Source of the DNA: Eledone cirrhosa
Taxonomy: Eukaryota
Reading direction: 5' to 3'
Assembly (NCBI GenBank): GCA_964016885.1
Contig: OZ024742.1
Coordinates: 146,754,001-146,818,000 of the forward strand
Length of the DNA: 64,000 nt
Translations under genes and position numbers: made by a program
Notes under the pieces: generated by a model
What the model was told of the DNA's origin: nothing
The model's input: only the letters and a program-made list of their open reading frames with translations
Database searches by the model: none
Shown here: positions 28,570-61,270 of the stretch, in pieces
Position numbering within the stretch: position 1 is the first letter of the stretch
Layout of the letters: each line of letters begins with the position of its first letter

Positions 28570-30620
28570 ATATCCAACTATAGACCTATCACATGTCTGT
28601 CCGTAATGTGGAAACTGTTGACGAGCATTGTGTCTGAGGAAATCTACCATCACCTCCACACAAACAACTTGTTACCGGACGAACAGAAAGGATGCCGAAA
28701 GAAGTCACGTGGTACAAAGGACCAGTTACTTATTGATAAGATGGTAATGGGGAATTGCAGGAGGAGACACACTGATCTTGCCATGGGATGGATAGACTAC
28801 AGAAAGGCATTTGACATGGTGCCTCATTCTTGGATCACCAAAAGCCTGGAGATCTTCAGGGTGGCAGATAACATCAGACAGTTGCTAGGCAGGAGTATGG
28901 GTCCTGGGAGACAGAGTTGACATCAACTGGAGTATCCTTGGGAAGCGTGAAGATCAAGAGAGGTATTTTCCAGGGAGATAGCCTGTCCCCTCTGTTGTTT
29001 GTCCTTGCCCTGATGCCCTTGACCATTATGCTGCGGAGGGTGAGAGCAGGATACAAGTTGGGAAGGGGAGAGCTTACCATCAATCACCTCCTCTTCATGG
29101 ACGATCTTAAGCTCTTCGGGAAAAGTGAGAAGGAGTTGGATGTGCTTGTTGACACTGTCCGTATTTTCAGCAGTGATATATGTATGCAGTTTGGTATTGG
29201 AAAATGTGGAGTCATTGTGATGAGGAGGGGTAGGTTGAGCAGAAGTAACGGGATCCAGATACCAACAGGTGAGATGATAAAGGAAATTGACTCTGAGGAA
29301 GGATACAAGTATTTGGGCGTTCTGGAGGCTGATGGCATAAAGAACAAAAAAATGAAGGAATTGTTAAGAACTGAATACATTCGGAGAGTAAGGAGCGTAT
29401 TGAAGTCACATCTGAACAGCAGAAATGCCATAAGCGCAGTAAATTCCCGAGCTGTGTCTATTATTAGGTACAGTGCGGGAATTCTGAGATGGAATGTTGC
29501 TGAACAAAAAGAAATGGATAGGAAGACTAGGAAGCTATTGACTATCTACAACATGTTCCACAAGAGGAGTGATGTCGATAGACTCTACCTAAGGAGATCT
29601 GAGGGTGGAAGAGGTCTTATCAGCATAGAGGACTGTGTTCAGATGGAGAAAAACAACCTATACAAATACGTGACCTATAGTAAGGAGCCAATGCTCAGAA
29701 CTGTACTGAAGGAGGGGACAGTAGGCCAGGGGATGTCCAAGGAGGAAATAACATCAAGGAGGAAGAGCAGCCTTAAGGGAAAATCCCTTCATAGTACCTT
29801 CTTTGAGAAAACTGAATTTAGAGATCCACAGACATGGAACTGGTTGAGAAGAGGAGACCTCAAAAAGGCTACAGAAGGAATGCTAATGGCTGCGCAGGAG
29901 CAGGCCCTCAAAACGAAGTGGTTGAAGCACCATATTTACAAGGAGGAGGCTAGCCCACTGTGCAGGATCTGTGGAGAGAGAGAGGAGACTGTGGCTCACA
30001 TTGTGTCCGAGTGTAAACACCTAGCCCAGACCCACTATAAGGGCTGGAGACACGATGTGATGGGCAGGGTGATCCACTGGCACCTGTGCAAAGTAAACAA
30101 TTTACCACATTCTGAGAAATGGTATGAGCATAGGCCAGAGGCGGTGATGGAGAACAATCAGGTGAAGGTGCTGTGGGATTTTAGGATACAGACGGACAAA
30201 AAACTGGAACACAATAGACCTGACCTGGTGGTTGTGGACAAAGAAAAAAGATCGTGTCTGATTGTGGATGTGGCCTGCCCGTTCGACACGAGAGTGCAAG
30301 AGAAGGAGAGGGAGAAAATTAACCGATACCAGGACCTAAAGTGGGAGGTGAAAAGGATTTGGAACTGCCATGAAGTCAAAGTGATCCCGATTGTCATAGG
30401 CGCACTGGGGACTATCTCCAAAAGTTTCCAGGGATGGTTAAAGAAAATCGGCCCCTTCACGCTTTTTGGAACGCTTCAAAAGGCATGCTTGCTTGGAACA
30501 GCAAGAACCCTCCGATACGTCCTGAATATCTGAGGCTGCAGGTAGTGGCTTGATATTCAATCCAACGGACTTTCCAGTTAACCAACATCAATGACTGAGA
30601 TTCAAGGAATAACAACAATA
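28570..30620 (+). mobile_element. R4/Dong-clade non-LTR retrotransposon, 5'-truncated, one frameshift near 28905
   Basis: RT motifs [25 protein letters not shown] and LFMDD; CCHC CRICGEREETVAHIVSEC; RHD; REL NRPDLV..D; flanked by (AAT)n. Confidence 0.95.
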
Positions 30621-30679: not shown

Positions 30680-32290
30680 AGCAACTAACAGCGCTGCGAT
30701 CGAATGTGGCTTTTTAGCCCAGCCAATGATCTAAAATGTTTTGCACAGAGACGGCAACCAAAACATTCACTGGGATTAGCCGGCTGTGGTTGGAGTTCAT
30801 GTACTTTTGCATGTCGCTTGAGCCCTCCTGCTGATTTACATTCTCTACCACATGCTTGGCAAGCATGATGAGTAGCATCTCCAACAGCAGCCTGGTAGTC
30901 AACCACTGGTCTTACTTTATAACTGCTTTATAAGATGACTTTCGAGTCCAGCTTTGCTTAGGCAGGGTCTTGCACAGACGCTGCATGTCAGCACCATAGG
31001 AGGACCCTCTCCGTCTGGAAGTGCAACAGCAATGCCCTTCCTCACATCCCGCTTTACTTTCTCGTATGCGATTCGAGATGCCTCAAAGGCAACTTTTCCT
31101 TCATATACAATCTTTCTCCATTTATTATGATCAGCAGCAATATTTTCCCATGTATCGGCAGGGATGTTAGCGTCTTTCAAAGGGGCTTTCAAGGAATCCT
31201 TATACCTCTTTTTTGGTTTATGTGGCGGTCGTTTTCCTTTAACCAACTCTCCATAGAAGAGTTGTTTTGGTATTCTAGAATCCTTCATCCTGGCAAGGTG
31301 ACCACTCCAACAGAGTCATTGCTTAAGCACATAGAGCTTTCCAAAATCTCGATACCACTGATGTTGTCCCTCCAGTGAACACCATGGATCCGTCTGAGAC
31401 ACATCTGATGGAAACGCTCCAATTTCTTAAGGTGATGTCGATATGTGACCCAGGTCTCGCAGGCATAAAGAAGAGAAGAGAACACACATGCCTTGTACAC
31501 CTTTACCTTTGTCTTCTTGCATATGTCTCGCCGACCCCAGAGTCGCCTTTCTAGCTTTCCGAAAGCATCACTTGCTTTCCTAATCCTAAGTGAGATTTCA
31601 CTATCAAGGTTGCTGTATCGATTGACAGTGCTTCCCAGGTAGACAAACTGATCAACCACTCCAAGTCGTTTACCACACACATAGATATTTGGTTCAGTGT
31701 ACTGCTTACCAGGGGCAGGTTGGTACATGACGGTTTTCTTGAGACTGACAGTCAATCCTAGGGCAGTGCAAGTGTCAGAAAATTCATTCAAAATGTGCTG
31801 CATATCACTCTCTGTGTGCGCTACAAGATCGCAATCATCTGCATACAAGAGGTCTCTTCTGATTGATGTAAATACTTTTGTCTTTGCAGCAAAGCGCCTG
31901 ATATTAAATATGCTACCTGAGGTTTGATATCGGATGTAAACACCATGCTCACAATTCCTGAATGCAATACAGAAAACCATTGCAAAGTATATGGCAAACA
32001 GGGTCGGTGCTGGAATATCCCCCTGTTTCACTCCACTTTTTACTGAGATAGGCTCCGACATGTTACCTCCGACATTAACCCAAGCCTTCATGTTGTCATG
32101 GAAATACCTAACTAAAGCAAGGAACTTATCAGGGCAACCAAGTTTCTGGAGAACCTTCCATAATGCATTTCTGTTAACAGTATCGAAAGCTTTTGTCAGA
32201 TCGACAAAAACCTGATACAGATCCAAACCTTGTTCCATACACTTCTCCTGGAGCTGTCTAGCTGAAAAGATCATATCAGTAGTGCCGCGT
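30680..32290 (-). mobile_element. RTE (BovB-like) LINE, 5'-truncated and frameshifted
   Basis: RGTTDMIFSARQLQEKC, FVDLTKAFD, GVKQG, LLYADD, FVYLGS, LLYACETW, RIPKQLFYGEL; C-terminal C2H2-like motifs. Confidence 0.93.
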
Positions 32291-33153
32291 TCATACATAC
32301 ATACATACATACATGCATACATACAAGTATAGTGCGAATGCCATGATAAAATGTACCCAGTACACTCTGTAAAGTGATTGACATTAGGAAGGACATCCAA
32401 CCATAGAAAACATGCCAAAATAAGGAATTTATAAACTAGTTATGGCTCCTCTGATATGTCTAGTCTCAATCTAACCCATGCCACCATCAAAAGCAAATGT
32501 AAAATGATGATTATGATGAAACAATGTTAATATATAATTATATATTTGCACGCACACACACATATTAGCATAGTTTCATCACAATCATCATTTTACATTT
32601 GCTTTCCATGCTGGCATGGGTTAGATTGTTAATCACAGTTTCATGTTCTCTAAATTCCAATGAGAGAGTCTTGAGTCTATGTTAGAAACCGGCTCTCTCA
32701 CTATTGGTAAAAATATGTATATATGTATATGTGTGTGTGATGGGATATGATATTCTATTTAATTGAGGAAAAAAATGTATAAATTTGTATATTATTATTA
32801 TTATTATCATTATTATTATTATGATTATTATTATTGATTTATCTCTAATAATTTCCCTATTTTATTGAAGAAGCTTTATTTTCTTGATGATTTTTCTTCA
32901 AATTGTGTTGGAATTTTTTTTCCTCTTAAAGAATTTTTTTTATATTTCTTTTGTGTGTTATTCTTCAGAATCCCAATTTTGAAATCGTTACAATGATATC
33001 ACGATAAATGAAGAGCATTAGAACTTCATCTATAAATCTAGATCATTCTTTATCTAATATAATATTGATATTAGAGATTCTACAATGGTAAATGAATCGG
33101 AACTTTTAATTTTTTATATATATATTGGCTTCTACTATTGTTATCAACATTTC

Positions 33154-44007: not shown

Positions 44008-44008
44008 T

Positions 44009-44367
44009 CAATGATATTAAATAAATGGAAACTATATTTATAAAACCATATTTATTTTATTATATATATTTCAAGGGTACCAAGACACATTGGTACGCTT
44101 TCATCAGATAAAATACAAAGTTTGTTTTATAAATAGAGACATACCCATGAAAATCATACCTTATCGGTTGGATATTCTCTGGATATATTCTTCACTATCC
44201 AGAGAATATCCAACCGATAAGGTATGATTTTCATGGGTATGTCTCTATTTATAAAACAAACTTTGTATTTTATCTGATGAAAGCATACCAATGTGTCTTG
44301 GTACCCTTGAAATATATATAATAAAATAAATATGGTTTTATAAATATAGTTTCCATTTATTTAATAT

Positions 44368-44372
<5 letters not shown>
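44009..44372. mobile_element. Fold-back element A (177-bp arms, 10-nt loop), one hammerhead per arm
   Basis: Arms 44009-44185 and 44196-44372 with one mismatch seen; flanked by (TA)n. Confidence 0.9.
44266..44328 (+). ncRNA. Type I hammerhead ribozyme (element A); mirror copy on the - strand at about 44053-44115
   Basis: TATTTTAT-CTGATGA-AAGCATACCA atgtgtct TGGTACCCTT-GAAA-TATATA-TA-ATAAAATA; 8-bp stem I and palindromic stem III. Confidence 0.8.
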
Positions 44373-44439
<67 letters not shown>

Positions 44440-44483
44440 TATAGATAACAAGGAATCAGTAATACATCAAAACACAATTTATT

Positions 44484-44577
44484 AATACATTACATATGTT
44501 TCTCCGTAGATCAGCTCAAGGCAGGATCTGTTACAGATTGAACCCGACTCTGCATTCACAAGTTCCTCAGATGTATT
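44484..44577 (-). ncRNA. Type I hammerhead ribozyme with extended stem II
   Basis: Reverse complement AATACAT-CTGAGGA-(about 60 nt)-GAAAC ATAT GTA-ATGTATT; 7-bp stem I, palindromic stem III, GUA site. Confidence 0.7.
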
Positions 44578-44620
44578 GTGTATTCAAAGTATCAAGTATC
44601 AAAATATCAAGTATATATAT

Positions 44621-44984
44621 ATATACGATATTAACAAATGGAAACTATATTTATAAAACCATATTTATTTCATTATACATATTTCAAGGAGACCAAGTTA
44701 AATTATGGTGTGCTTTCATCAGACAAAATATAATATAGATCAGTTTTATAAATAAAAATTGACATACCCTTAAAAAATGCAACCATTACTGTTTTGTCTG
44801 ATGAAAGCACACCATAATTTAACTTGGTGTCCTTGAAATATGTATAATGAAATAAATATGGTTTTATAAATATAGTTTCCATTTGTTAATATCGTATATC
44901 TACTCCAAATACTTGTTGAGTGCTTTATATCAGTTATAAAAATATTTGCTTGTTGTATCCCAACAATTTAAATAGAACTTTTGC
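44621..44984 (+). mobile_element. Fold-back element B (108-bp arms plus 3' tail) with hammerheads
   Basis: Arms 44621-44728 and 44792-44899; TTTTGT-CTGATGA-AAGCACACCA taatttaact TGGTGTCCTT-GAAA-TATGTA-TA-ATGAAA at 44792-44852. Confidence 0.85.
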
Positions 44985-45023
<39 letters not shown>

Positions 45024-45100
45024 GTTGACGGCTGAGAGAAAGGAGTATTCAATGCCGAAGTAGAGTTTCAATATTCATTTTATTAAGGCTAAATAGTGAG

Positions 45101-45150
45101 TCTTGTTACTCTGGAGTTTTTCCTGTGTATCATAGGGTCATCAGACAAGA
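45101..45150 (-). ncRNA. Degenerate type I hammerhead
   Basis: Reverse complement TCTTGT-CTGATGA-CCCT atgatacac AGG-AAAAA-CTC ca GAG-TA-ACAAGA; perfect 6-bp stem I, GAAA register disturbed. Confidence 0.55.
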
Positions 45151-45579
45151 ACTATCATCATCATCATCATCACTGTCCAGTTTGCTATGCTAGCATGAGT
45201 TAGACAGGTTGTCCTGTTGTGAGTAATGCCAGATCAGATGACCATGTCTTGCTCCAACAAAACTAATTTTGGCTTGGTTTCCACAGCTGGATGCCCTTCC
45301 TAATGCCAAACACATTTACACTGAGTACTGGTGTTTTTTGTTGTGACACTTACATGACCACTTTATAGTGTGTGTGTGTGTGTGTAATAAAAATAACAAC
45401 TTCATGTATATATATATTTATATACACACCCCATTTATGTTGGATAATTTAACTAATGGATAGATCAAGTCATTCTACTTACCAGATTGTGATGTAATAA
45501 GCAAAAACCCTCAATATTATTTGTCTCATTCATCATTGATGTAGATTCCCATGTTTAATGCAGAAATAAAGTTAAGTAC

Positions 45580-46013
45580 TTCAATGAAAATAGAAAGCTG
45601 GATTCCAAGTATTCCTTTAATTTTGAATAAATACACAATACGTATTTCAATGGTCAGCTTACCTCATCAGATCATGGCATAAGACATCTAGCTATGTCAT
45701 AAGATGTAATTAACATAAAAGATTTAGCAATCATCCACTGGAATACAGCAAAATATAATCAAATGATTGATAAGGAGGCAGTCTATTGATTGATGTGATC
45801 TCATAAATCGACAGACTACCTCCATACTAATCCTTTGGTTATAATAGGTGTAATCCAATAGTTGATTACTAAATCTTTAAAATGGTTTATATTAGTTATA
45901 CCTGATGATGTTGCTGGATGCTTTACTTCATGATCTGATGACATAAGTGGCCATTGCGTATTTATGCAACATTAAAGGAATACTTGGAACCCAGCCTTTT
46001 TTTTTCCATTGAA
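45580..46013. mobile_element. Diverged fold-back element G (about 215-bp arms, centre near 45798)
   Basis: For example GCTGGATTCCAAGTATTCCTTTAAT / ATTAAAGGAATACTTGGAACCCAGC and GGAGGCAGTCT / AGACTACCTCC; CTGATGA on both strands. Confidence 0.75.
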
Positions 46014-46049
46014 ATATATATATGTGTGTGTGTATATATATATATATAT

Positions 46050-46624
46050 ATGATTCGTTTTTGAATTGGTTTTGTGAGATTTCTTATCTGAAAATGTGTG
46101 TTGGAACCGATATTGTTATACTTTGGGAGGGTCATGTTGCCAATAAGAAACACACGCACCAGTTGCTTTCACTTCAATTTATTATAATAAATTTATAAAT
46201 TTCCGGTTGGTTGGTTGGTTCCACAACCAGATGATTGTTTATATATTGTCAAAGTTCTTTCGTCACACATTCTGTGACCTCTTCGGTGACTGGGGATTCT
46301 TTTCTTTGTTTTTGTGCCTCTCCTTTGTTCTGTCCTACGCCATCTTGTTTTTCTTTGATGTTGAATCAAAGAAGATGGATGGCGTAGGACAGAACAAAGG
46401 AGAGGCACAAAAACAAAGAAAAGAATCCCCAGTCACTGAAGAGGTCACAGAATGTGTGACGAAAGAACTTTGACAATATATAAACAATCATCTGGTTGTG
46501 GAACCAACCAACCGGAAATTTATAAATTCCTAAATTTATAAATTTATTATAATAAATTGAAGTGAAAGCAACTGGTGCGTGTGTTTCTTATTGGCAACAT
46601 GACCCTCCCAAAGTATAACAATAT
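46050..46624 (-). mobile_element. Fold-back element D (about 240-bp arms) with hammerhead
   Basis: Arms 46110-46344 and 46378-46624; + strand GTCA-CTGAAGA-G-GTCACA gaatg TGTGAC-GAAAG aa CTT-TGAC at 46432-46474. Confidence 0.85.
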
Positions 46625-46704
46625 ATATATATATACATTTAATTATATTATAGAGTAAAATGACAGGAGGTCAGGCAGGTTGAATTCCCTCAATTATTTA
46701 TTTC

Positions 46705-46775
46705 TGCAAACACTATGCATATTTCAGTGGCCAGGTTATGTATGAACCTGGGGACATCATCAGGTGTATATTGCA
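46705..46775 (-). ncRNA. Type I hammerhead ribozyme
   Basis: Reverse complement TGCAA tat ACAC-CTGATGA-TGTCC CCAGGTT catacat AACCTGG CCACT-GAAA-TATGCA-TA-GTGT TTGCA. Confidence 0.75.
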
Positions 46776-47167
46776 TGATAGTTGTATACCAAAGGAATGA
46801 TGCTAAGCACATTTCAAGAGGTTTTAAGGAAAAAAGCAGAAAAGAAAAAACAGAAGAAAAAAGTTTTTTTTTTTTTTTTTTTTACTCCAAGGTGATCGTA
46901 GTAGCCAGTTGGCTTGTCGCCTATAATATAATATTTAACTCAGTTCCCACAACACCAGCAGGATTCAACATCAAAGATGGATGAGTGGCGTAATGTTCAG
47001 TGCTTTCCTATTATTACATCATGGTTAACATTGCAGAATGACCAATTCTACCCAGTGGTGAACCACCAAATTTCTGTATATATATATATATGTATCATCA
47101 TCATCATCATCATCATTTTACGTCCGCTTTTCCCTGCTGGCAAGGGTGGGACGGTATATATATATAT

Positions 47168-47610
47168 ATATTATTCAAAATATTAACAAATGAAAGATAT
47201 TCACATAATCAAAATATATGCTTTATTATATATATTTCAAAGGTACTGTGTTGTTTTCTTTCAGTACGTCTTCATCAGATAAAATATATGATTTGATATA
47301 TGACATACCGCTACGGTCTTGATTATACAATTCCAGTATTAGCAGTCAATACTGGAATTGTATAATCAAGACTGTAGCGGTATGTCATATATCAAATCAT
47401 ATATTTTATCTGATGAAGACGTACTGAAAGAAAACAACACAGTACCTTTGAAATATATATAATAAAGCATATATTTTGATTATGTGAATATCTTTCATTT
47501 GTTAATATTTTGAATAATATTAAAAACTCCAGGAAAACTTTTTGTTGAGTGCTTTTAATCTATTGTAAAATTGTATTCATTGAGTAATCAACGAACTTTA
47601 TTAGAAGTTA
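47168..47610 (+). mobile_element. Fold-back element C (173-bp arms, 7-nt loop, 3' tail) with hammerheads
   Basis: Arms 47168-47340 and 47348-47520; TTTTAT-CTGATGA-AGACGTACTG (13 nt) CAGTACCTTT-GAAA-TATATA-TA-ATAAAG at 47404-47467. Confidence 0.9.
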
Positions 47611-48310: not shown

Positions 48311-49395
48311 TCATCATCATCATCATTTCATTTTACGTCCGCTTCTCCCTGCTTGCAAGGGTGGGACGTGAACTGATTCTGGCTTGATTTCTACAGCTGG
48401 AGGCCCTTCCTAACACCAATTTCATTTACAGTGAGTGCTGGGTGCTTTTTTACCGTGGCACCTCTATGACCACTTTGCAGTGGAATGATAGGGACCCCGG
48501 TCCCTATCATCTCATTTCTACAGCTGAGTAAACTGGAGCAATGTGAAATAAAGTGTCTTGCTCAAGGAAACAACACATCACTCGGTCTGAGAATTGAACT
48601 CACAACCTTTGGATTGCAAGGCCAATGCTCAAACCACTAAGCCATGTGCCTCCATCTGTTGTCTCTCTCACATATATATGAATATAGCAATTTAGCAATA
48701 GATCAGCAACATATCAATAAAGAAATTATTTTATATTCAAATACAAACCGAAATTGGTCTTGTGCTTCAGCTTACATACAATCATCATCATCATCATCAT
48801 CACCGTTTTACGTCCGTTCTTCCACGCTAGCATGGGTTAGACGGGTTGTCCTGTTGTGTGCAGTGTCTGGTCGGCTGACCATGCCTTGCTCATACAGGAA
48901 CTGATCTGGCTTGATTTCTACAGCTGGATGCCCTTCCTAACACCAACCTCATTTACAGTGAGTGCTGGGTGCTTTTTCGTGGCGCCTACACGTCCACTTT
49001 ACAGTGTGGGCTGGGTGCTTTTTTGCCGTGGCACCTCCATGACCACCTTGCGGTGGGGGGTGTGGGGGCATATTGTTTATATGCTTCAGCATGTACCCAT
49101 GGGAGGTCGGGTACTCTGTATTACTGCGTGACGCCAGAAGTCACGGTCGTGTGTCATTGTCTTTGAGAGGTGTACTTGGGTAAGGTCGGCTTTTATCACC
49201 TCATCCCAGGTCATCTTGGGTCTCCCCACTCCGCGGTTTCCATCAACTTCTAGTGCTCTGCACCTTTTTATGCAGCTGTCATCCTTCATATATCCTACAA
49301 TATAGAATCCTATTCATATTGAAACCAGAGTTGTGACCCGTGGTACATGTATAAAAGAAAACATTCAGTACATCATCATCATCCCTTTATTATTA

Positions 49396-51989: not shown

Positions 51990-52101
51990 CAATTACCAAC
52001 CTCTCTACATCTTCTCCCCCTCCTTAGTCACCTTCCCTCGCTCCATTCTCTACATCTTTCTCTCCTCCATTTTCTTCTCTCCATCTCTCACTCCGTCTCC
52101 C

Positions 52102-52148
<47 letters not shown>

Positions 52149-52209
52149 TCACTCTCATACTTTCTTCATTCTCTCTCCATCTCTCCATTCACTCCATCTT
52201 TCTCTCCTC

Positions 52210-52284
<75 letters not shown>

Positions 52285-52361
52285 CATTCCATCTTTCTCT
52301 CCACCATTTTCTTCTCTCTCTCTCTCTCTCTATTCTCTCAATCTCTCTCTCCCTTCTCTTC

Positions 52362-52402
<41 letters not shown>

Positions 52403-52445
52403 TCTCTCTCTCTCTCTCTCTCTACTCACTTCTATCCTCTCCTTT
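51990..52445. repeat. (CT)n polypyrimidine tract
   Basis: Read directly. Confidence 0.95.
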
Positions 52446-52534
52446 CCCTCAACTATCCAATCGCTCTTCCCACAACTCCCTTCCATTCAATCCATATACA
52501 TCTACTCCCACTATATTTTCCTACTTTCATCACT

Positions 52535-55500
52535 GATTCTACCACTACTGCCAACACCACCACTACCACTACCACCACCACTGCCACTACTGCCAACACC
52601 ACCACTACCACTACCACCACCACTGCCACTACTGCCAACACCACCACTACCACTACCACTAACACCACCACTACCACCAACACCAACACTAGCACCAACC
52701 CCACCACTAGCACCGACACCATCACTACCACTAACACCACCACTACCACCAACACCATCACTACCACCAACACCACCACTACCACTACCACCACCACTGC
52801 CACTACCACCAACACCACCACTACCACTACCACCACCACTACCACTACCACTACCACCACCACTACCACCAACACTGCCACTACCACCAACAACACCACT
52901 ACCACCAACACCATCACTACCACCAACACCACCACTACCACCAACACCACCACTAACACCAACATCATCACTACCACCAACACCATCACTACCACCAACA
53001 CCATCACTACCACTACCATCAACACCATCACTACCACCAACACCATCACTAACACCAACACCACCAACACCACCACTAACACCAACATCATCACTACCAC
53101 CAACACCATCACTACCACCAACACCATCACTACCACTACCATCAACACCATCACTACCACCAACACCATCACTAACACCAACACCATCACTACCACCAAC
53201 ACCACCACTACCACCAACACCATCACTACCACCAACACCAGCACTACCACCAACACCATCACTACCACCAACACCACCACTACCACCAACACCACCACTA
53301 CCACCAACACCACCACAACCACCAACACCACCACTACCACTACCACTACCACTACCACTACCACCACCACTGCCAATACCACCAACACCACCACTACCAC
53401 CAACACTACCACCAACACTGCCACTACCACCAATACCACCACTACCACCAACACCACCCCTACCACCAACACCACCACTACCACCAACACCACCACTACC
53501 ACCACCAACACCATCACTACCACCAACACCATTACTACCACCACCAACACCATCACTACCACCCCACCACCATTACCACCAACACCATCACTACCACTAC
53601 CACCAACACCCTCACTACCACCAACACCATCACTACCACCAACACCACCATTACCACCAACACCACCACTACCACCACCAACACCCTCACTACCACCACC
53701 AACACCACCATTACCACCAACACCATCACTACCACCCCACCACCATTACCACCATAACCATCACTACCACCACCAACACCATCACTACCACCACCAACAC
53801 CATCACTACCACCAACACCATGACTACCACCACCAACACCACCACCATCACTACCACTACCACCAACACCATCACTACCACCACCAACACCACCACTACC
53901 ACCAACACCACCACTACCACCAATACCACCACCAACACCAACACCACCACTACCACCACCAACACCATCACTACCACCACCAACACCATCACTACCACCA
54001 ACACCATTACTACCACCACCAACACCATCACTACCACCCCACCACCACTACCACCAACACCATCACTACCACCAACACCACCACTACCACCACGAACACC
54101 ACCACCACCACCAACACCACCACTACCACCAACACCATCACTACCACCACCAACACCACCACTACCACCAACACCACCACTACCACCAACACCATCACTA
54201 CCACCAACACCATCACTACCACCAACACCATCACTACCACCAACACCATCACTACCACCAACACCACCACTACCACCAACACCATCACTACCACCAACAC
54301 CACCACTACCACCAACACCACTACTACCACCAACACCATCACTACCACCAACACCATCACTACCACCAACACCACCACTACCACCAACACCATCACTACC
54401 ACCAACACCATCACTACCACCAACACCACCACTACCACCAACACCATCACTACCACCAACACCACCACTACCACCAACACCACCACTACCACCAACACCA
54501 TCACTACCACCAACACCATCACTACCACCAACACCACCACTACCACCAACACCACCACTACCACCAACACCACCACTACCACCAACACCACCACTACCAC
54601 CAACACCATCACTACCACTACCACCAACACTGCCACTACCACCAACACCACCACTACCACCAACACCATCACTACCACCAACACCATCACTACCACCAAC
54701 ACCATCACTACCACCAACACCACCACTACCACCAACACCATCACTACCACCAACACCATCACTACCACCAACACCATCACTACCACCAACACCATCACTA
54801 CCACCAACACCACCACTACCACCAACACCATCACTACCACCAACACCACCACTACCACCAACACCACCACTACCACCAACACCATCACTACCACCAACAC
54901 CATCACTACCACCAACACCATCACTACCACCAACACCACCACTACCACCAACACGATCACCTCCACCAACACCATCACTACCACCAACACCACCACCACC
55001 AACACCATCACTACCACCAACACCACCACTACCACCAACACCACCACTACCACCAACACCATCACTACCACCAACACCATCACTACCACCAACACCACCA
55101 CTACCACCAACACCATCAATACCACCAACACCATCACTACCACCAACACCACCACTACCACCAACACCACCACTACCACCAACACCATCACTACCACCAA
55201 CACCATCACTACCACCAACACCACCACTACCACCAACACCATCACCTCCACCAACACCATCACTACCACCAACACCATCACCACCACCACCAACACCATC
55301 ACTACCACCAACACCACCACTACCACCAACACCACCACTACCACCAACACCATCACTACCACCAACACCATCACTACCACCAACACCACCACTACCACCA
55401 ACACCATCACTACCACCAACACCATCACTACCACCAACACCATCACTACCACCACCAACACCATCACTACCACCAACACCACCACTACCACCAACACCAC

Positions 55501-56860
55501 CACCACCAACACCACCACTACCACCAACACCATCACTACCACCAACACCACCATTACCACCAACACCATCACTACCACCAACACCACCATTACCACCAAC
55601 ACCATCACTACCACCAACACCATCAATACCACCAACACCACCACTACCACCAACACCACCACTACCACCAACACCATCACTACCACCAACACCATCACTA
55701 CCACCAACACCATCACTACCACCAACACCATCACTACCACCAACACCACCACTACCACCCACCACCATTACCACCAACACCATCACTACCACCAACACCA
55801 TCACTACCACCACCAACACCACCACTACCACCAACACCATCACTACCACCAACACCATCACTACCACCCACCACCATTACCACCAACACCATCACTACCA
55901 CCAACACCACCACTACCACCCACCACCACTACCACCAACACCATCACTACCACCAACACCATCACTACCACCACCAACACCACCACTACCACCAACACCA
56001 TCACTACCACCAACACCACCACTACCACCCACCACCATTACCACCAACACCATCACTACCACCAACACCATCACTACCACCACCAACACCACCACTACCA
56101 CCAACACCATCACTACCACCAACACCACCATTACCACCAACACCATCACTACCACCAACACCATCACTACCACCAACACCATCACTACCACCAACACCAT
56201 CACTACCAGCAACACCATCACTACCACCACCAACACCACCACTACCACCCACCACCATTACCACCAACACCATCACTACCACCAACACCATCACTACCAC
56301 CACCAACACCACCACTACCACCAACACCATCACTACCACCAACACCACCACTACCACCAACACCATCACTACCACCAACACCACCATTACCACCAACACC
56401 ATCACTACCACCAACACCATCACTACCACCAACACCATCACTACCACCAACACCATCACTACCACCAACACCATCACTACCACCAACACCATCACTACCA
56501 CCAGCACCATCACTACCACCAACACCACCACTACCACCAACACCATCACTACCACCAACACCACCATTACCACCAACACCATCACTACCACCAACACCAT
56601 CACTACCACCAACACCATCACTACCACCAACACCATCACTACCACCAACACCATCACTACCACCAACACCATCACTACCAGCAACACCATCACTACCACC
56701 AACACCACCACTACCACCCACCACCATTACCAACAACACCATCACTACCACCAACACCATCACTACCACCACTAACACCACCACTACCACCCCACCACCA
56801 ACACCATCACTACTACCATCACCAACACACACACCCCTCACCACCACCACCACCACGGCA
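52535..56860. repeat. (ACC)n-derived 18-bp minisatellite ACCACCAACACCA(T/C)CACT, 4.3 kb
   Basis: Read directly; source of the PPTPSL, poly-T and HHHYHQ pseudo-ORFs. Confidence 0.97.
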
Positions 56861-56929
56861 TACATTCTCACATGCTGCAGCTTACTATCAACACGCTCCA
56901 CCACACCTCTACCCTACACACATGGTCAT

Positions 56930-59460
56930 ACACACACCAGAGACACACATATATACATACACACATACATACAACACATACATACACACACACATACAAC
57001 ACATACATACACACATACATAGACACATACATACACACATACATACAACATATACATACACACATACATAAAACATATACATACACATATACATACAACA
57101 TATACATACAACACATACATACAACACATACATACAACATATACATACACATATACATACAACACATACATACAACACATACATACACACATTCATACAA
57201 CACATACATACACACATACATACAACATATACATATACATACAACACATACATAGAACACATACATACAACACATACATACAACACATACATACAACACA
57301 TACATACAACACATACATACAACACATACATACAACACATACATACACACACATACATACAACACATACATACAACACATACATATGCACACATACATAC
57401 AACACATACATACAACACATACATACACACACATACATGCACACACATACATACAACACATACATATGCACACATACATACAACACATCCATACAACACA
57501 TACATACAACACATACATACAACACATACATACAACACATACATACAACACATACATACAACACATACATACAACACATACATACAACACATACATACAA
57601 CACATACATACACACACATACATACAACACATACATATGCACACATACATACAACACATACATACAACACATACATACACACACATACATGCACACACAT
57701 ACATACAACACATACATATGCACACATACATACAACACATCCATACAACACATACATACAACACATACATACAACACATACATACAACACATACATACAA
57801 CACATACATACAACACATACATACAACACATACATACAACACATACATACAACACATACATACACACACATACATACAACACATACATACAACACATACA
57901 TACACACACATACATACAACACATACATACGACACATACATACACACACATACATACAACACATACATACAACACATACATACAACACATACATACAACA
58001 CATACATACAACACATACATACAACACATACATACAACACATACATACACACACATACATACAACACATACATACAACACATACATACAACACATACATA
58101 CACACACATACATACACACATATACATACAACACATACATACAACACATACATACAACACATACATACAACACATACATACACACACATACATACAACAC
58201 ATACATACAACACATACATACAACACATACATACAACATATACATACAACACATACATACAACACATACATACAACACATACATACACACATACATACAA
58301 CATATACATACACACATACATACAACACATACATACAACACATACATACACACACATACATACAACACATACATACAACACATACATACACACACATACA
58401 TACAACACATACGTACACACATACATACAACACATACATACAACACATACATACAACACATACATACACACACATACATACAACACATACATACAACACA
58501 TACATACACACATACATACAACACATACATACAACACATACATACAACATATACATACACACACATACATACATACAACACATACATACAACACATACAT
58601 ACACACACATACATACAACACATACATACACACACATACATACAACATATACATACACACATACATACACACATACATACACACATACATACAACACATA
58701 CATACAACACATACATACACACACATACATACAATATATACATACAACACATACAACACATACATACAACACATACATACAACACATACATACACACACA
58801 CATACATACAACATATACATACACACATACATACACACATACATACAACATATACATATACATACAACACATACATGCAACACATACAACACATACATAC
58901 AACACATACATGCATACACTTACACATACACTTACTTTTTCTCTCTGTCATACACACTCACACATATATGCCACACATATACACCACACACATGTACACA
59001 TACACACGCCACAAACCTGAACTTACACACGCACACACATGAACACACATGAACACATACACACACACATCCACACATAACTCATACACGCCACACATGT
59101 GAACATATACACACATGCACATATACACACATACACACATAATGCATACACACAACACATGTGAACATGCACACATATACACACACATGTAAACACTTAT
59201 ATGTACACAAACACGCATGTATCACACACACACACACACACGTACAAACGCACATACACATACACATACACACACACTCACATGTATACGCGAACACACA
59301 CACACACACATACAGTAACTACACACACGCACAAACACACATATACACATGCACACACACACATACAGCAACTACACACACGCACAAACACACATATACA
59401 CACGCACACACACACACATGTATACACACCCACATGTACACACACACACACACACAGCAA
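56930..59460. repeat. 13-bp (ACATACATACAAC)n minisatellite grading into (CA)n
   Basis: Read directly. Confidence 0.96.
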
Positions 59461-59529
59461 CCACATCTAACTAGAACTAGGTTGTCTGAAGGAAACACTT
59501 GCATATTTAATTGAATTATTTCCAGATAA

Positions 59530-60065
59530 TCTCCTCTTCTTCTTCTTCTTCTTCTTCTTCTTCTTCTTCTTCTTCTTCTTCTTCTTCTTTGTCCTTCTTT
59601 TTCTTCTTTATCCTTCTTCTTTTTCTTCTTCTGCTCCTCCTCCCACTCTTTCTTCATACTTCTTTTTCATCTCCTCCTACTCCTTCATACTTCTTCATAC
59701 TTCTTCCTCCCCCTCCTCATCCTCCTCCTCTTCTTCTCCATTGCACAAGATAGTAACTTCTTCTTCTTTATCCTTCTTCTTCTTTTTCTTTTTCTTCTTC
59801 ATCCCTCTTCTTCTTTTTCTTCTTCTCCTCCTACTCCTTCATACTTCTTTGTACTTCTTCCTCCCCTCCTCATCCTCCTCCTCTTCTTCTCCATTGCACA
59901 AGATAGTAACTTCTTCTTCTTCTTTATCCTTCTTCTTCTTTTTCTTCTTCTTCTTCATCCTTCTTCTTTTTCTTCTCCTCCTCCTACTCCTTCATACTTC
60001 TTTGTACTTCTTACTCCTCCTCCACCTCTTCCTCCTCTTCTTCTCCATTGCACAAGATAGTAACT
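59530..60065. repeat. (CTT)n/(CCT)n tract with three ~150-bp units
   Basis: TTCTCCATTGCACAAGATAGTAACTT at about 59734, 59887 and 60041. Confidence 0.9.
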
Positions 60066-60706: not shown

Positions 60707-60708
<2 letters not shown>

Positions 60709-61270
60709 GGAGGCACATGGCTTAGTGGTTAGAACATTGGCCTTGCAATCAAAAGGTTGTGAGTTCAATTCTCAGACTGGCTGATGTGTTGTTTCCTTGA
60801 GCAAGACACTTTATTTCACATTGCTCCAGTTTACTCAGCTGTAGAAATGAGATGATAGGGACTGGGGTCCATATCACTCCACTGCAAAGTGGTCGTGTAA
60901 GCGCCATGGCAAAAAAGCACCCAGCACTCACTGTAAATGAGGTTGGTGTTAGGAAGGGCATCCAGCTGTAGAAATCAAGCCAGAATCAGTTCCCGTCCCA
61001 CCCTTGCAAGCAGGGAAAAAGCGGACGTAAAATTATGATGATGATGATGATGAATGATGAATGATATATATATATATATATATATATATATCCACACTGT
61101 AAATGTGGTTGGTGTTAGGATGGGCATCCAGCCGTAGAAAACCTTCCAGATAGTCCTGTATGAGCAAGACACGGTCACCCGACCAATCTTGGCTCAAGTG
61201 GGACAACTCCTGCCTAACCCATGCTAGCGTGGAAGATGGACGTTAAACGATGATGATGATGATGATGATA
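60707..61270 (+). mobile_element. Full-length SINE plus a second SINE 3' half
   Basis: tRNA-like head at 60709; (GAT)n tails at 61035 and 61250. Confidence 0.88.

Follow-up and report, generated by a model that had tools for sequence, protein, structure and literature searches.

Predicted hammerhead motifs in palindromic elements of Eledone cirrhosa: ends of a Penelope-like element with a compensated stem II and a constant, unpaired C10.4

Introduction

A 64,000-nucleotide stretch of the Eledone cirrhosa genome (assembly GCA_964016885.1, contig OZ024742.1, positions 146,754,001 to 146,818,000 of the forward strand), the whole of which is called the window here, holds three palindromic elements, A, B, and C, with a hammerhead motif predicted in either arm. 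The original prediction at this locus took the compensatory differences among their stem II strands as direct evidence of selection on RNA structure and proposed that an invariant C opposite C at stem II pair 4 might be a tertiary or protein contact of an undescribed hammerhead subtype. What are these elements, was their fold selected, and what could an unpaired base within stem II be for? We consider it probable that they are ends of a Hydra-type Penelope-like element (PLE) whose hammerhead would cleave as a dimer, has a stem II maintained by selection, and carries a 5' mismatch base, C10.4, that makes a contact gating cleavage.

Results

Stem II was preserved by compensatory change

All six arms of A, B, and C fit the type I hammerhead core CUGANGA...GAAA...UH, and these elements carry predicted type I hammerhead motifs. 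The fold comprises an 8-bp stem I, the core CUGAUGA, a 10-position stem II, GAAA, and then U16.1 and A17, with a self-complementary hexamer as stem/loop III in a type I arrangement open at stem I; one hammerhead lies in each arm and reads outward from the center of the palindrome (Table 1). The sequence details given originally were accurate: the stem II strands, with loops of 8, 10, and 13 nt, are present exactly as quoted in the A left arm, the B right arm, and C; GAAA-TAT(A/G)TA-TA and an AU-rich stem I occur in all three elements; and C faces C at pair 4 in each. Overlooked were the stem breaks in the A right arm (pair 5) and the B left arm (pair 6), i.e., a damaged stem II in two of the six local copies. 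Rfam returned no hammerhead match for the window at gathering score or at E <= 10, its output being sub-threshold miRNA-like hairpin matches and one tRNA-like match.

By direct reading of A, B, and C, both sides differ at five of the 10 stem II positions (3, 5, 6, 9, and 10), and position 2 changes on one side from A-U to G.U. To this comparison we added a set of 202 distinct copies in which the hammerhead was parsed, taken from the window and from fetched loci that were picked by pattern and by hand, and so not at random; 25 stem types recurred in at least two loci and together account for 142 copies. A 24-row alignment was assembled from 21 of 28 cluster representatives plus A-left, B-right, and locus L258, leaving out L094, L030, and L264 (stem already present) and L027, L003, L222, and L019 (bulged or broken stems). 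Both-sided change was found there in eight of nine stem II pairs, the ninth being pair 4. The covariation score of 0.414 was reached by none of 500 shuffles, and slid controls stayed at or below 0.138. Stems I, II, and III around the core were recovered in the alignment and, independently, by RNAalifold, which left pair 4 open. On a tree built from flanking sequence only, pairs 1 to 3, 5, and 6 change two to six times per side.

The compensatory covariation claimed for three elements was thus upheld in a larger alignment. Across some 15 subfamilies, stems I to III were preserved by compensatory change, an argument that active elements had a use for the fold, and it is very probable that selection on successive source elements maintained stem II. 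The catalytic G8 is mutated in 293 matches, as against 20,232 matches to the intact family pattern; since inserted copies are mutated even at this base, we place the selection on past source elements and not on the insertions. The signal lies in the differences between source subfamilies, and three related transposon copies are no direct evidence of present selection, which qualifies the original assertion. Compensatory families have been reported before for PLE hammerheads (PMC4209133).

Loop III was kept as well. Its inner pair is self-complementary in 23 of 24 rows and the next pair in all 24, and the variants UAUAUA, UAUGUA, UACGUA, and UGCGCA are all self-complementary, as expected for cleavage by a dimer. 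A transcript of a whole palindrome is predicted to be 83 to 98% paired as long double-stranded RNA (dsRNA), which makes inserted copies unlikely ribozymes unless transcription starts at the center.

The elements are almost certainly ends of a Penelope-like element

A search of the 3.0-Gb genome G000 with the family motif pattern gave 20,232 matches, and a reversed control gave none, so that the motif is no product of chance. The main family totals about 21,000 matches (21,005) and a sister pattern 20,287, each arm being counted separately, so that these figures are matches and not insertions. Some 40,000 hammerhead motifs in one animal genome were, in this way, missed by Rfam. Complete copies disclose their parent. 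The hammerhead sequence forms direct repeats 3.3 to 4.2 kb apart around frames with reverse transcriptase (RT) and GIY-YIG domains: at L031, it occurs twice in direct orientation, 3,676 nt apart, around a frameshifted RT plus GIY-YIG frame, and an open reading frame (ORF) of this kind lies between pseudo-long terminal repeats (pLTRs) at L031, L094, L098, L099, and L100. L094, with a B-type stem, has an inverted pLTR, a pLTR, the ORF, and a pLTR in that order. Open frames of 743 aa (L092) and 808 aa (L098) share 53% identity, and 36 homologues were found at E <= 1e-20. The hammerhead lies 190 to 220 nt upstream of the start codon, with the ORF starting at +190, +194, or +219 from the cleavage site. 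Family copies at loci such as L031 and L094 flank RT-endonuclease frames, as a PLE origin requires; A, B, and C are each almost certainly two 5'-truncated pLTR ends of such an element set head to head beside (TA)n. PLEs are a known home of such hammerheads, a setting that the original prediction overlooked.

Two further observations concern the pLTRs. At L094, both direct pLTRs have C.U at pair 4 and the inverted one has C.C, suggesting that the inverted arm derived from another RNA molecule. In 16 main-family copies (e.g., L016, L095, L096, and L292), a motif, ATTTGCAT, that we take to be octamer-like lies 112 to 151 nt upstream of the core and upstream of the point where many 5' ends cluster, a possible pLTR promoter.

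By shared ORF motifs, a hammerhead in the pLTR, and insertion at (TA)n, the family would be assigned to the Hydra clade. L092 and L098 have the RWR/RWI and DKT motifs that also occur in the published Hydra-1_Obim (PMC8557442), which is a different family; L031, L098, and L099 have the CxCX5C linker before a C-terminal GIY-YIG, together with CxxC and CxH, and in L092 the linker is partly deleted. No CCHH motif was evident by eye in the endonuclease part of the ORFs, a judgment with no alignment to canonical PLE endonucleases behind it. A single ORF with these same RW-type, DKT, CxCX5C, GIY-YIG, CxxC, and CxH features, pLTR hammerheads, (TA)n targets, and inverted 5'-truncated copies with a tail at one end are described for Hydra-clade PLEs (PMC8557442), and the 5' truncation, the inverted 5' copy, and the tail at one end are all present in copies of this family. 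Published Hydra units are generally below 3 kb, shorter than the 3.3 to 4.2 kb found here, and their tails of 30 to 40 bp (PMC8557442) compare with about 85 to 95 nt in this family, two to three times as long.

Copies end at two fixed points and would arise from two internal start sites

In three clusters, 3' ends fall into two classes when counted from the cleavage site: 14 of 26 copies of the sister family end at +48 to +53 and 9 at +135 to +138; 12 of 23 in the B cluster at +46 to +53 and 10 at +144 to +146; and 14 of 29 in the S1 cluster at +47 to +58 and 10 at +116 to +151. The remaining copies continue toward the ORF. Overall there are two fixed end points, about +50 and +140 past the cleavage site, the measured ends possibly overrunning a few bases into TA. 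Element A has two short ends, and B and C each combine a short end with a long one. The tail between the two points is about 85 to 95 nt (L031, L092, L094, and L098). A run of (TA)4 or longer occurs at +35 to +170 in 170 of the 202 copies, a count made with no shuffled control in a genome where (TA)n is common. The 5' ends are variable, many lying 65 to 80 nt upstream of the core. The tail begins with a conserved, hairpin-like ACTC...GAGT motif, and in the main family UA-rich bases adjoin both 3' ends and might base-pair with the (TA)n target once it is nicked.

In the anole PLE, two internal RT start sites define the tail, as shown in vitro; the template there is uncut RNA, and protein is needed for the hammerhead to cleave (PMC11167929). 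The two classes of 3' ends match two internal RT start sites of this kind, and the tail of about 90 nt fits two-site internal initiation in a second PLE clade. We propose that the element's protein would nick (TA)n DNA and that reverse transcription would begin at the two internal sites and proceed back across a hammerhead left uncut. Where one cDNA is primed on each strand, the two would then join at their truncated 5' ends and form a palindrome. In a tandem transcript, two hammerheads would associate by way of their self-complementary loop III sequences and free RNA of unit length, and the ribozyme would likely cleave slowly, as a dimer, within the element's own transcript.

C10.4 is constant and its partner is not

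Across the main family, pair 4 is C.C in 19,168 of 21,005 matches, 1,064 lacking C10.4 and 773 lacking C11.4. Among the 100 matches listed for each, judged by eye, both kinds of loss are spread over many backgrounds and are mostly C to T. A C10.4-G11.4 pair occurs in 82 matches, in many subfamily backgrounds and in no expanded subfamily. The mismatch itself varies: it is C.U in all 26 parsed copies of the sister family and C.A in all 5 of one further subfamily. The C-C of the original prediction is therefore not invariant; what stands is that position 4 is always unpaired within the lineage (24 of 24 alignment rows), with a constant C10.4 and a variable base opposite. C10.4 is fixed in all 25 recurrent stem types, and 11.4 is C in 20, U in 4, A in 1, and never G. 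A further C.U stem II type was seen once (G000:C1:335248444-335248504). Two copies with C-G, 7.5 kb apart, were considered as a transposed pLTR pair and rejected as a host duplication, being identical over 1,800 nt.

The flank-built tree places no change at 10.4, as against 6, 3, 2, 5, 4, and 1 at its neighbors (mean, 3.5) and 7 at N7. Zero changes have a Poisson probability of 0.001 at the N7 rate (0.006 corrected), and the tree counts give moderate support to constraint on C10.4. The mismatch also weakens the stem: a natural C-G stem is predicted at -7.0 kcal/mol and its C.C sibling at -2.2 kcal/mol, a cost of about 5 kcal/mol in stems whose loops differ by one base. Retention of C10.4 with a free opposite base points to a contact made by C10.4, so that the tertiary or protein contact first proposed for the mismatch is plausible for this base alone, and as a candidate. 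Such a contact of C10.4, non-canonical and base-specific, would be made either to the U-A run conserved in stem I or to the protein that the element encodes; with the weakened inner stem II, it would keep cleavage slow or protein-gated. We rate the chances of a functional contact as about even.

Discussion

The combined explanation, in which the elements are ends of a Hydra-type PLE and a C10.4 contact gates a dimeric hammerhead, has to face a number of contrary observations. Single-strand minimum free energy structures lack stem III, and stem I is mispaired in several monomers. In the Pfam search of the ORF proteins, GIY-YIG scored 22.4 bits (E 1.5e-4), just below the 22.6 cut-off, and no RT family was matched. 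Dropping the four representatives with bulged or broken stems raised the paired fraction of the alignment, and all subfamilies go back to a single ancestor, so that alignment cells are not independent events and relatedness inflates their counts. Measured against the mean of its neighbors, the absence of changes at 10.4 has a Poisson probability of 0.03, or 0.19 corrected for seven positions. Inserted copies mutate 11.4 at 3.7% and 10.4 at 5.3%, faster than G8 at 1.4%; CpG context may explain the rate at 10.4, less clearly that at 11.4. Both arms of L293, which differ elsewhere, have C-G, so that an RNA with this pair may have been copied on one occasion; alternatively, the arms may have been converted. 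Beyond this genome, an alignment-based metagenome scan kept 80 of 498 related loci, 55 of them with a hammerhead (a scan with a single protein query found no relative, and the alignment query did). Among the 50 distinct Hydra stem II strings so obtained, with a filter that demanded pairs 2 and 3, position 4 is paired in 47, and the other three have C.A, A.C, and G.G, C.C being absent (0/50). Unpaired C10.4 is therefore lineage specific and not required in Hydra PLEs generally.

A first alternative is a frozen accident in which the stem was selected and C10.4 is an ancestral mismatch that by chance never changed and has no role of its own. One common ancestor, a corrected chance of about 0.19 that some position shows zero changes, the single change at position 7 on the tree, the pairing of position 4 in other Hydra families, and the C-G of both L293 arms are all consistent with it. 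A neutral unpaired base should, however, change like N7, with its seven changes, and C to U, by eye the commonest 10.4 change among the 100 matches listed, is fixed in none of the 25 recurrent types. We regard the accident as possible, if on the unlikely side.

A second alternative dispenses with base identity: any mismatch near the core might suffice to destabilize stem II so that the RNA stays uncut until it is reverse transcribed. The partner of C10.4 in recurrent types (C, U, or A, never G), the cost of about 5 kcal/mol, and the requirement of the copies for an uncut junction agree with such pure attenuation, as do U.U at pair 1 in 26 of the 50 metagenomic Hydra hammerheads and the U.U mismatch at the base of stem II that has already been published (PMC3088659 and PMC7229834). 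It leaves the constant 5' C and the constant location at pair 4 unexplained, and we find it unlikely.

C10.4 could also pair with a G in the upstream pLTR (-22 to -36), forming an alternative helix that blocks the ribozyme. Seven of 15 subfamilies, the A and C types and the sister family among them, could form a helix of 7 to 9 bp through C10.4, and the mean helix of 5.96 exceeds the 4.33 obtained with shuffled upstream sequence (0/1,000). The matched and mismatched pairs, though, show no covariation (p = 0.27, 0.059, and 0.32), S1 and B, both abundant subfamilies, lack the helix (3 to 4 bp), and the 3' strand pairs almost equally well with the same upstream region (5.3 versus 5.9); among 28 representatives, C10.4 has no constant long-range Watson-Crick partner. 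Such a conformational switch is improbable. Three further readings, namely ribozymes domesticated by the host and now under selection, a non-LTR retrozyme, and a MITE/foldback DNA element (MITE, miniature inverted-repeat transposable element), are suggested by the long near-perfect inverted arms and by three copies inside 3.5 kb but are scarcely credible in view of two broken copies among six, tens of thousands of decaying copies, unequal arms that are pieces of pLTRs, the lack of short head-to-tail units, and palindrome read-through that folds into long dsRNA (83 to 98% paired) and would bury the hammerhead.

A gating contact by C10.4 in a selected PLE hammerhead thus remains our preferred explanation. 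A stronger version, in which this lineage has its own hammerhead subtype, with the unpaired C10.4 of a long stem II as a base-specific switch that stem I or the RT-endonuclease of the element reads and that holds the RNA uncut for internal reverse transcription, and with cleavage licensed only in the dimer or ribonucleoprotein, is more doubtful. If it were true, the existing subfamilies would amount to a mutational scan, already made, of PLE hammerhead function. What the hammerhead does in PLEs has been called unclear (PMC8557442), and insertion in vitro can proceed without cleavage (PMC11167929); the roughly 15 subfamilies with conserved stems single out C10.4 as the base of interest.

PLE hammerheads with a long helix II, a palindromic loop III, a dimeric design, opposite-strand pairs, and Hydra elements are already published. 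The unpaired C10.4 is a new structural peculiarity and not a new ribozyme class or element class. Neither a C.C or C.H mismatch at 10.4 nor this PLE family was found in the literature searched, although the PLE-dimer variants of Lunse et al. and the figures and supplements of PMC4209133 could hold either. File S2 of PMC8557442, a canonical-descriptor table, has 26 Hydra rows, and none of them, read by eye, shows this long stem II with unpaired pair 4. The consensus of minimal hammerheads of Cervera (PMC4209133) has an extra nucleotide between 9 and 10.1, which A to C lack and element D has, and G10.1-C11.1, where A to C have A-U and 6 of 28 representatives have G-C; its palindromic 15.2-16.2 with loop III recurs in this family. 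Compared with the metazoan PLE hammerheads of that report, this family has an 8-bp stem I and a fixed unpaired C10.4, and the Drosophila virilis variant has a bulge in helix II and not a C10.4 mismatch.

Anolis Poseidon (PMC11167929) resembles this family in the two internal RT starts that define the tail, an AT-rich target, and copied RNA with an intact hammerhead. Its hammerhead overlaps the ORF start and its tail is short, whereas here the ORF follows the cleavage site by 190 to 220 nt; protein-assisted cleavage, a possibility here, has been shown for Poseidon. Non-LTR retrozymes (PMC7229834; bioRxiv 10.64898/2026.07.22.740005) likewise have type I hammerheads, a relationship to PLEs, and high copy numbers, and an axolotl retrozyme family has a U.U mismatch at the base of helix II. 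Retrozymes, however, are short non-coding head-to-tail tandem units, unlike the head-to-head truncated pLTR ends of coding elements described here.

Other features of the window and fetched loci

The coordinates of the elements are collected in Table 1. Between B and C lies a fourth long palindrome, D, of an unrelated family. Its minimal hammerhead has an extra base after A9 and a fully paired stem II, its left hammerhead copy carries U4C, and the motif recurs in loci L003, L022, and L083.

Table 1. Palindromic elements and predicted hammerheads, in window positions
Feature	Positions	Strand	Details
Element A	44008..44372	.	Two 5'-truncated pLTR ends, head to head; junction ~44186; arms 99% complementary, aligned to the pLTR of full-length locus L031; both arms finish at the short 3' end, (TA)n runs on either side
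Hammerhead A-left	44053..44115	-	Intact; core start 44107; predicted cleavage after 44061
Hammerhead A-right	44266..44328	+	C10.4 = 44284, C11.4 = 44305; predicted cleavage after 44320; A.C break at stem II pair 5 (CpG-type change)
Element B	44625..44984	.	Head-to-head pLTR ends, aligned to L031 pLTR; short 3' end on left arm; right arm truncated ~8 nt 5' of core, carries tail
Hammerhead B-left	44666..44730	-	C.C break at stem II pair 6
Hammerhead B-right	44790..44854	+	Intact; core start 44798; C10.4 = 44808, C11.4 = 44831; predicted cleavage after 44846
PLE tail of element B	44896..44984	+	~89 nt from short to long 3' end
Element D	46052..46620	.	Unrelated family; bounds approximate
Hammerhead of element D	46432..46474	+	Minimal
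Element C	47168..47602	.	Head-to-head pLTR ends, arms 47168-47340 and 47348-47520, aligned to L031 pLTR; right arm extends into tail, end coordinate approximate
Hammerhead C-left	47219..47286	-	Intact; core start 47278
Hammerhead C-right	47402..47467	+	Core start 47410; C10.4 = 47420, C11.4 = 47446; predicted cleavage after 47461

Elsewhere in the window, positions 52000 to 60000 hold a long tandem array of 9/12-nt units with a GC skew near -0.99 and stop-free frames of up to 1,698 aa. A 313-nt repeat, probably a tRNA-derived short interspersed nuclear element, occurs as two inverted copies at 48343 to 48655 and 60707 to 61019, with the tRNA-like Rfam match at 48587 to 48644. Frames of 553 aa (28872 to 30533, +) and 384 aa (31285 to 32439, -) look by eye like RT remnants of non-LTR retrotransposons. 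Among the fetched loci, L012 has two direct copies, 483 nt apart (2045 to 2108 and 2528 to 2591, -), of another hammerhead-like motif, one whose stem II contains a long insert; the spacing is retrozyme-like.

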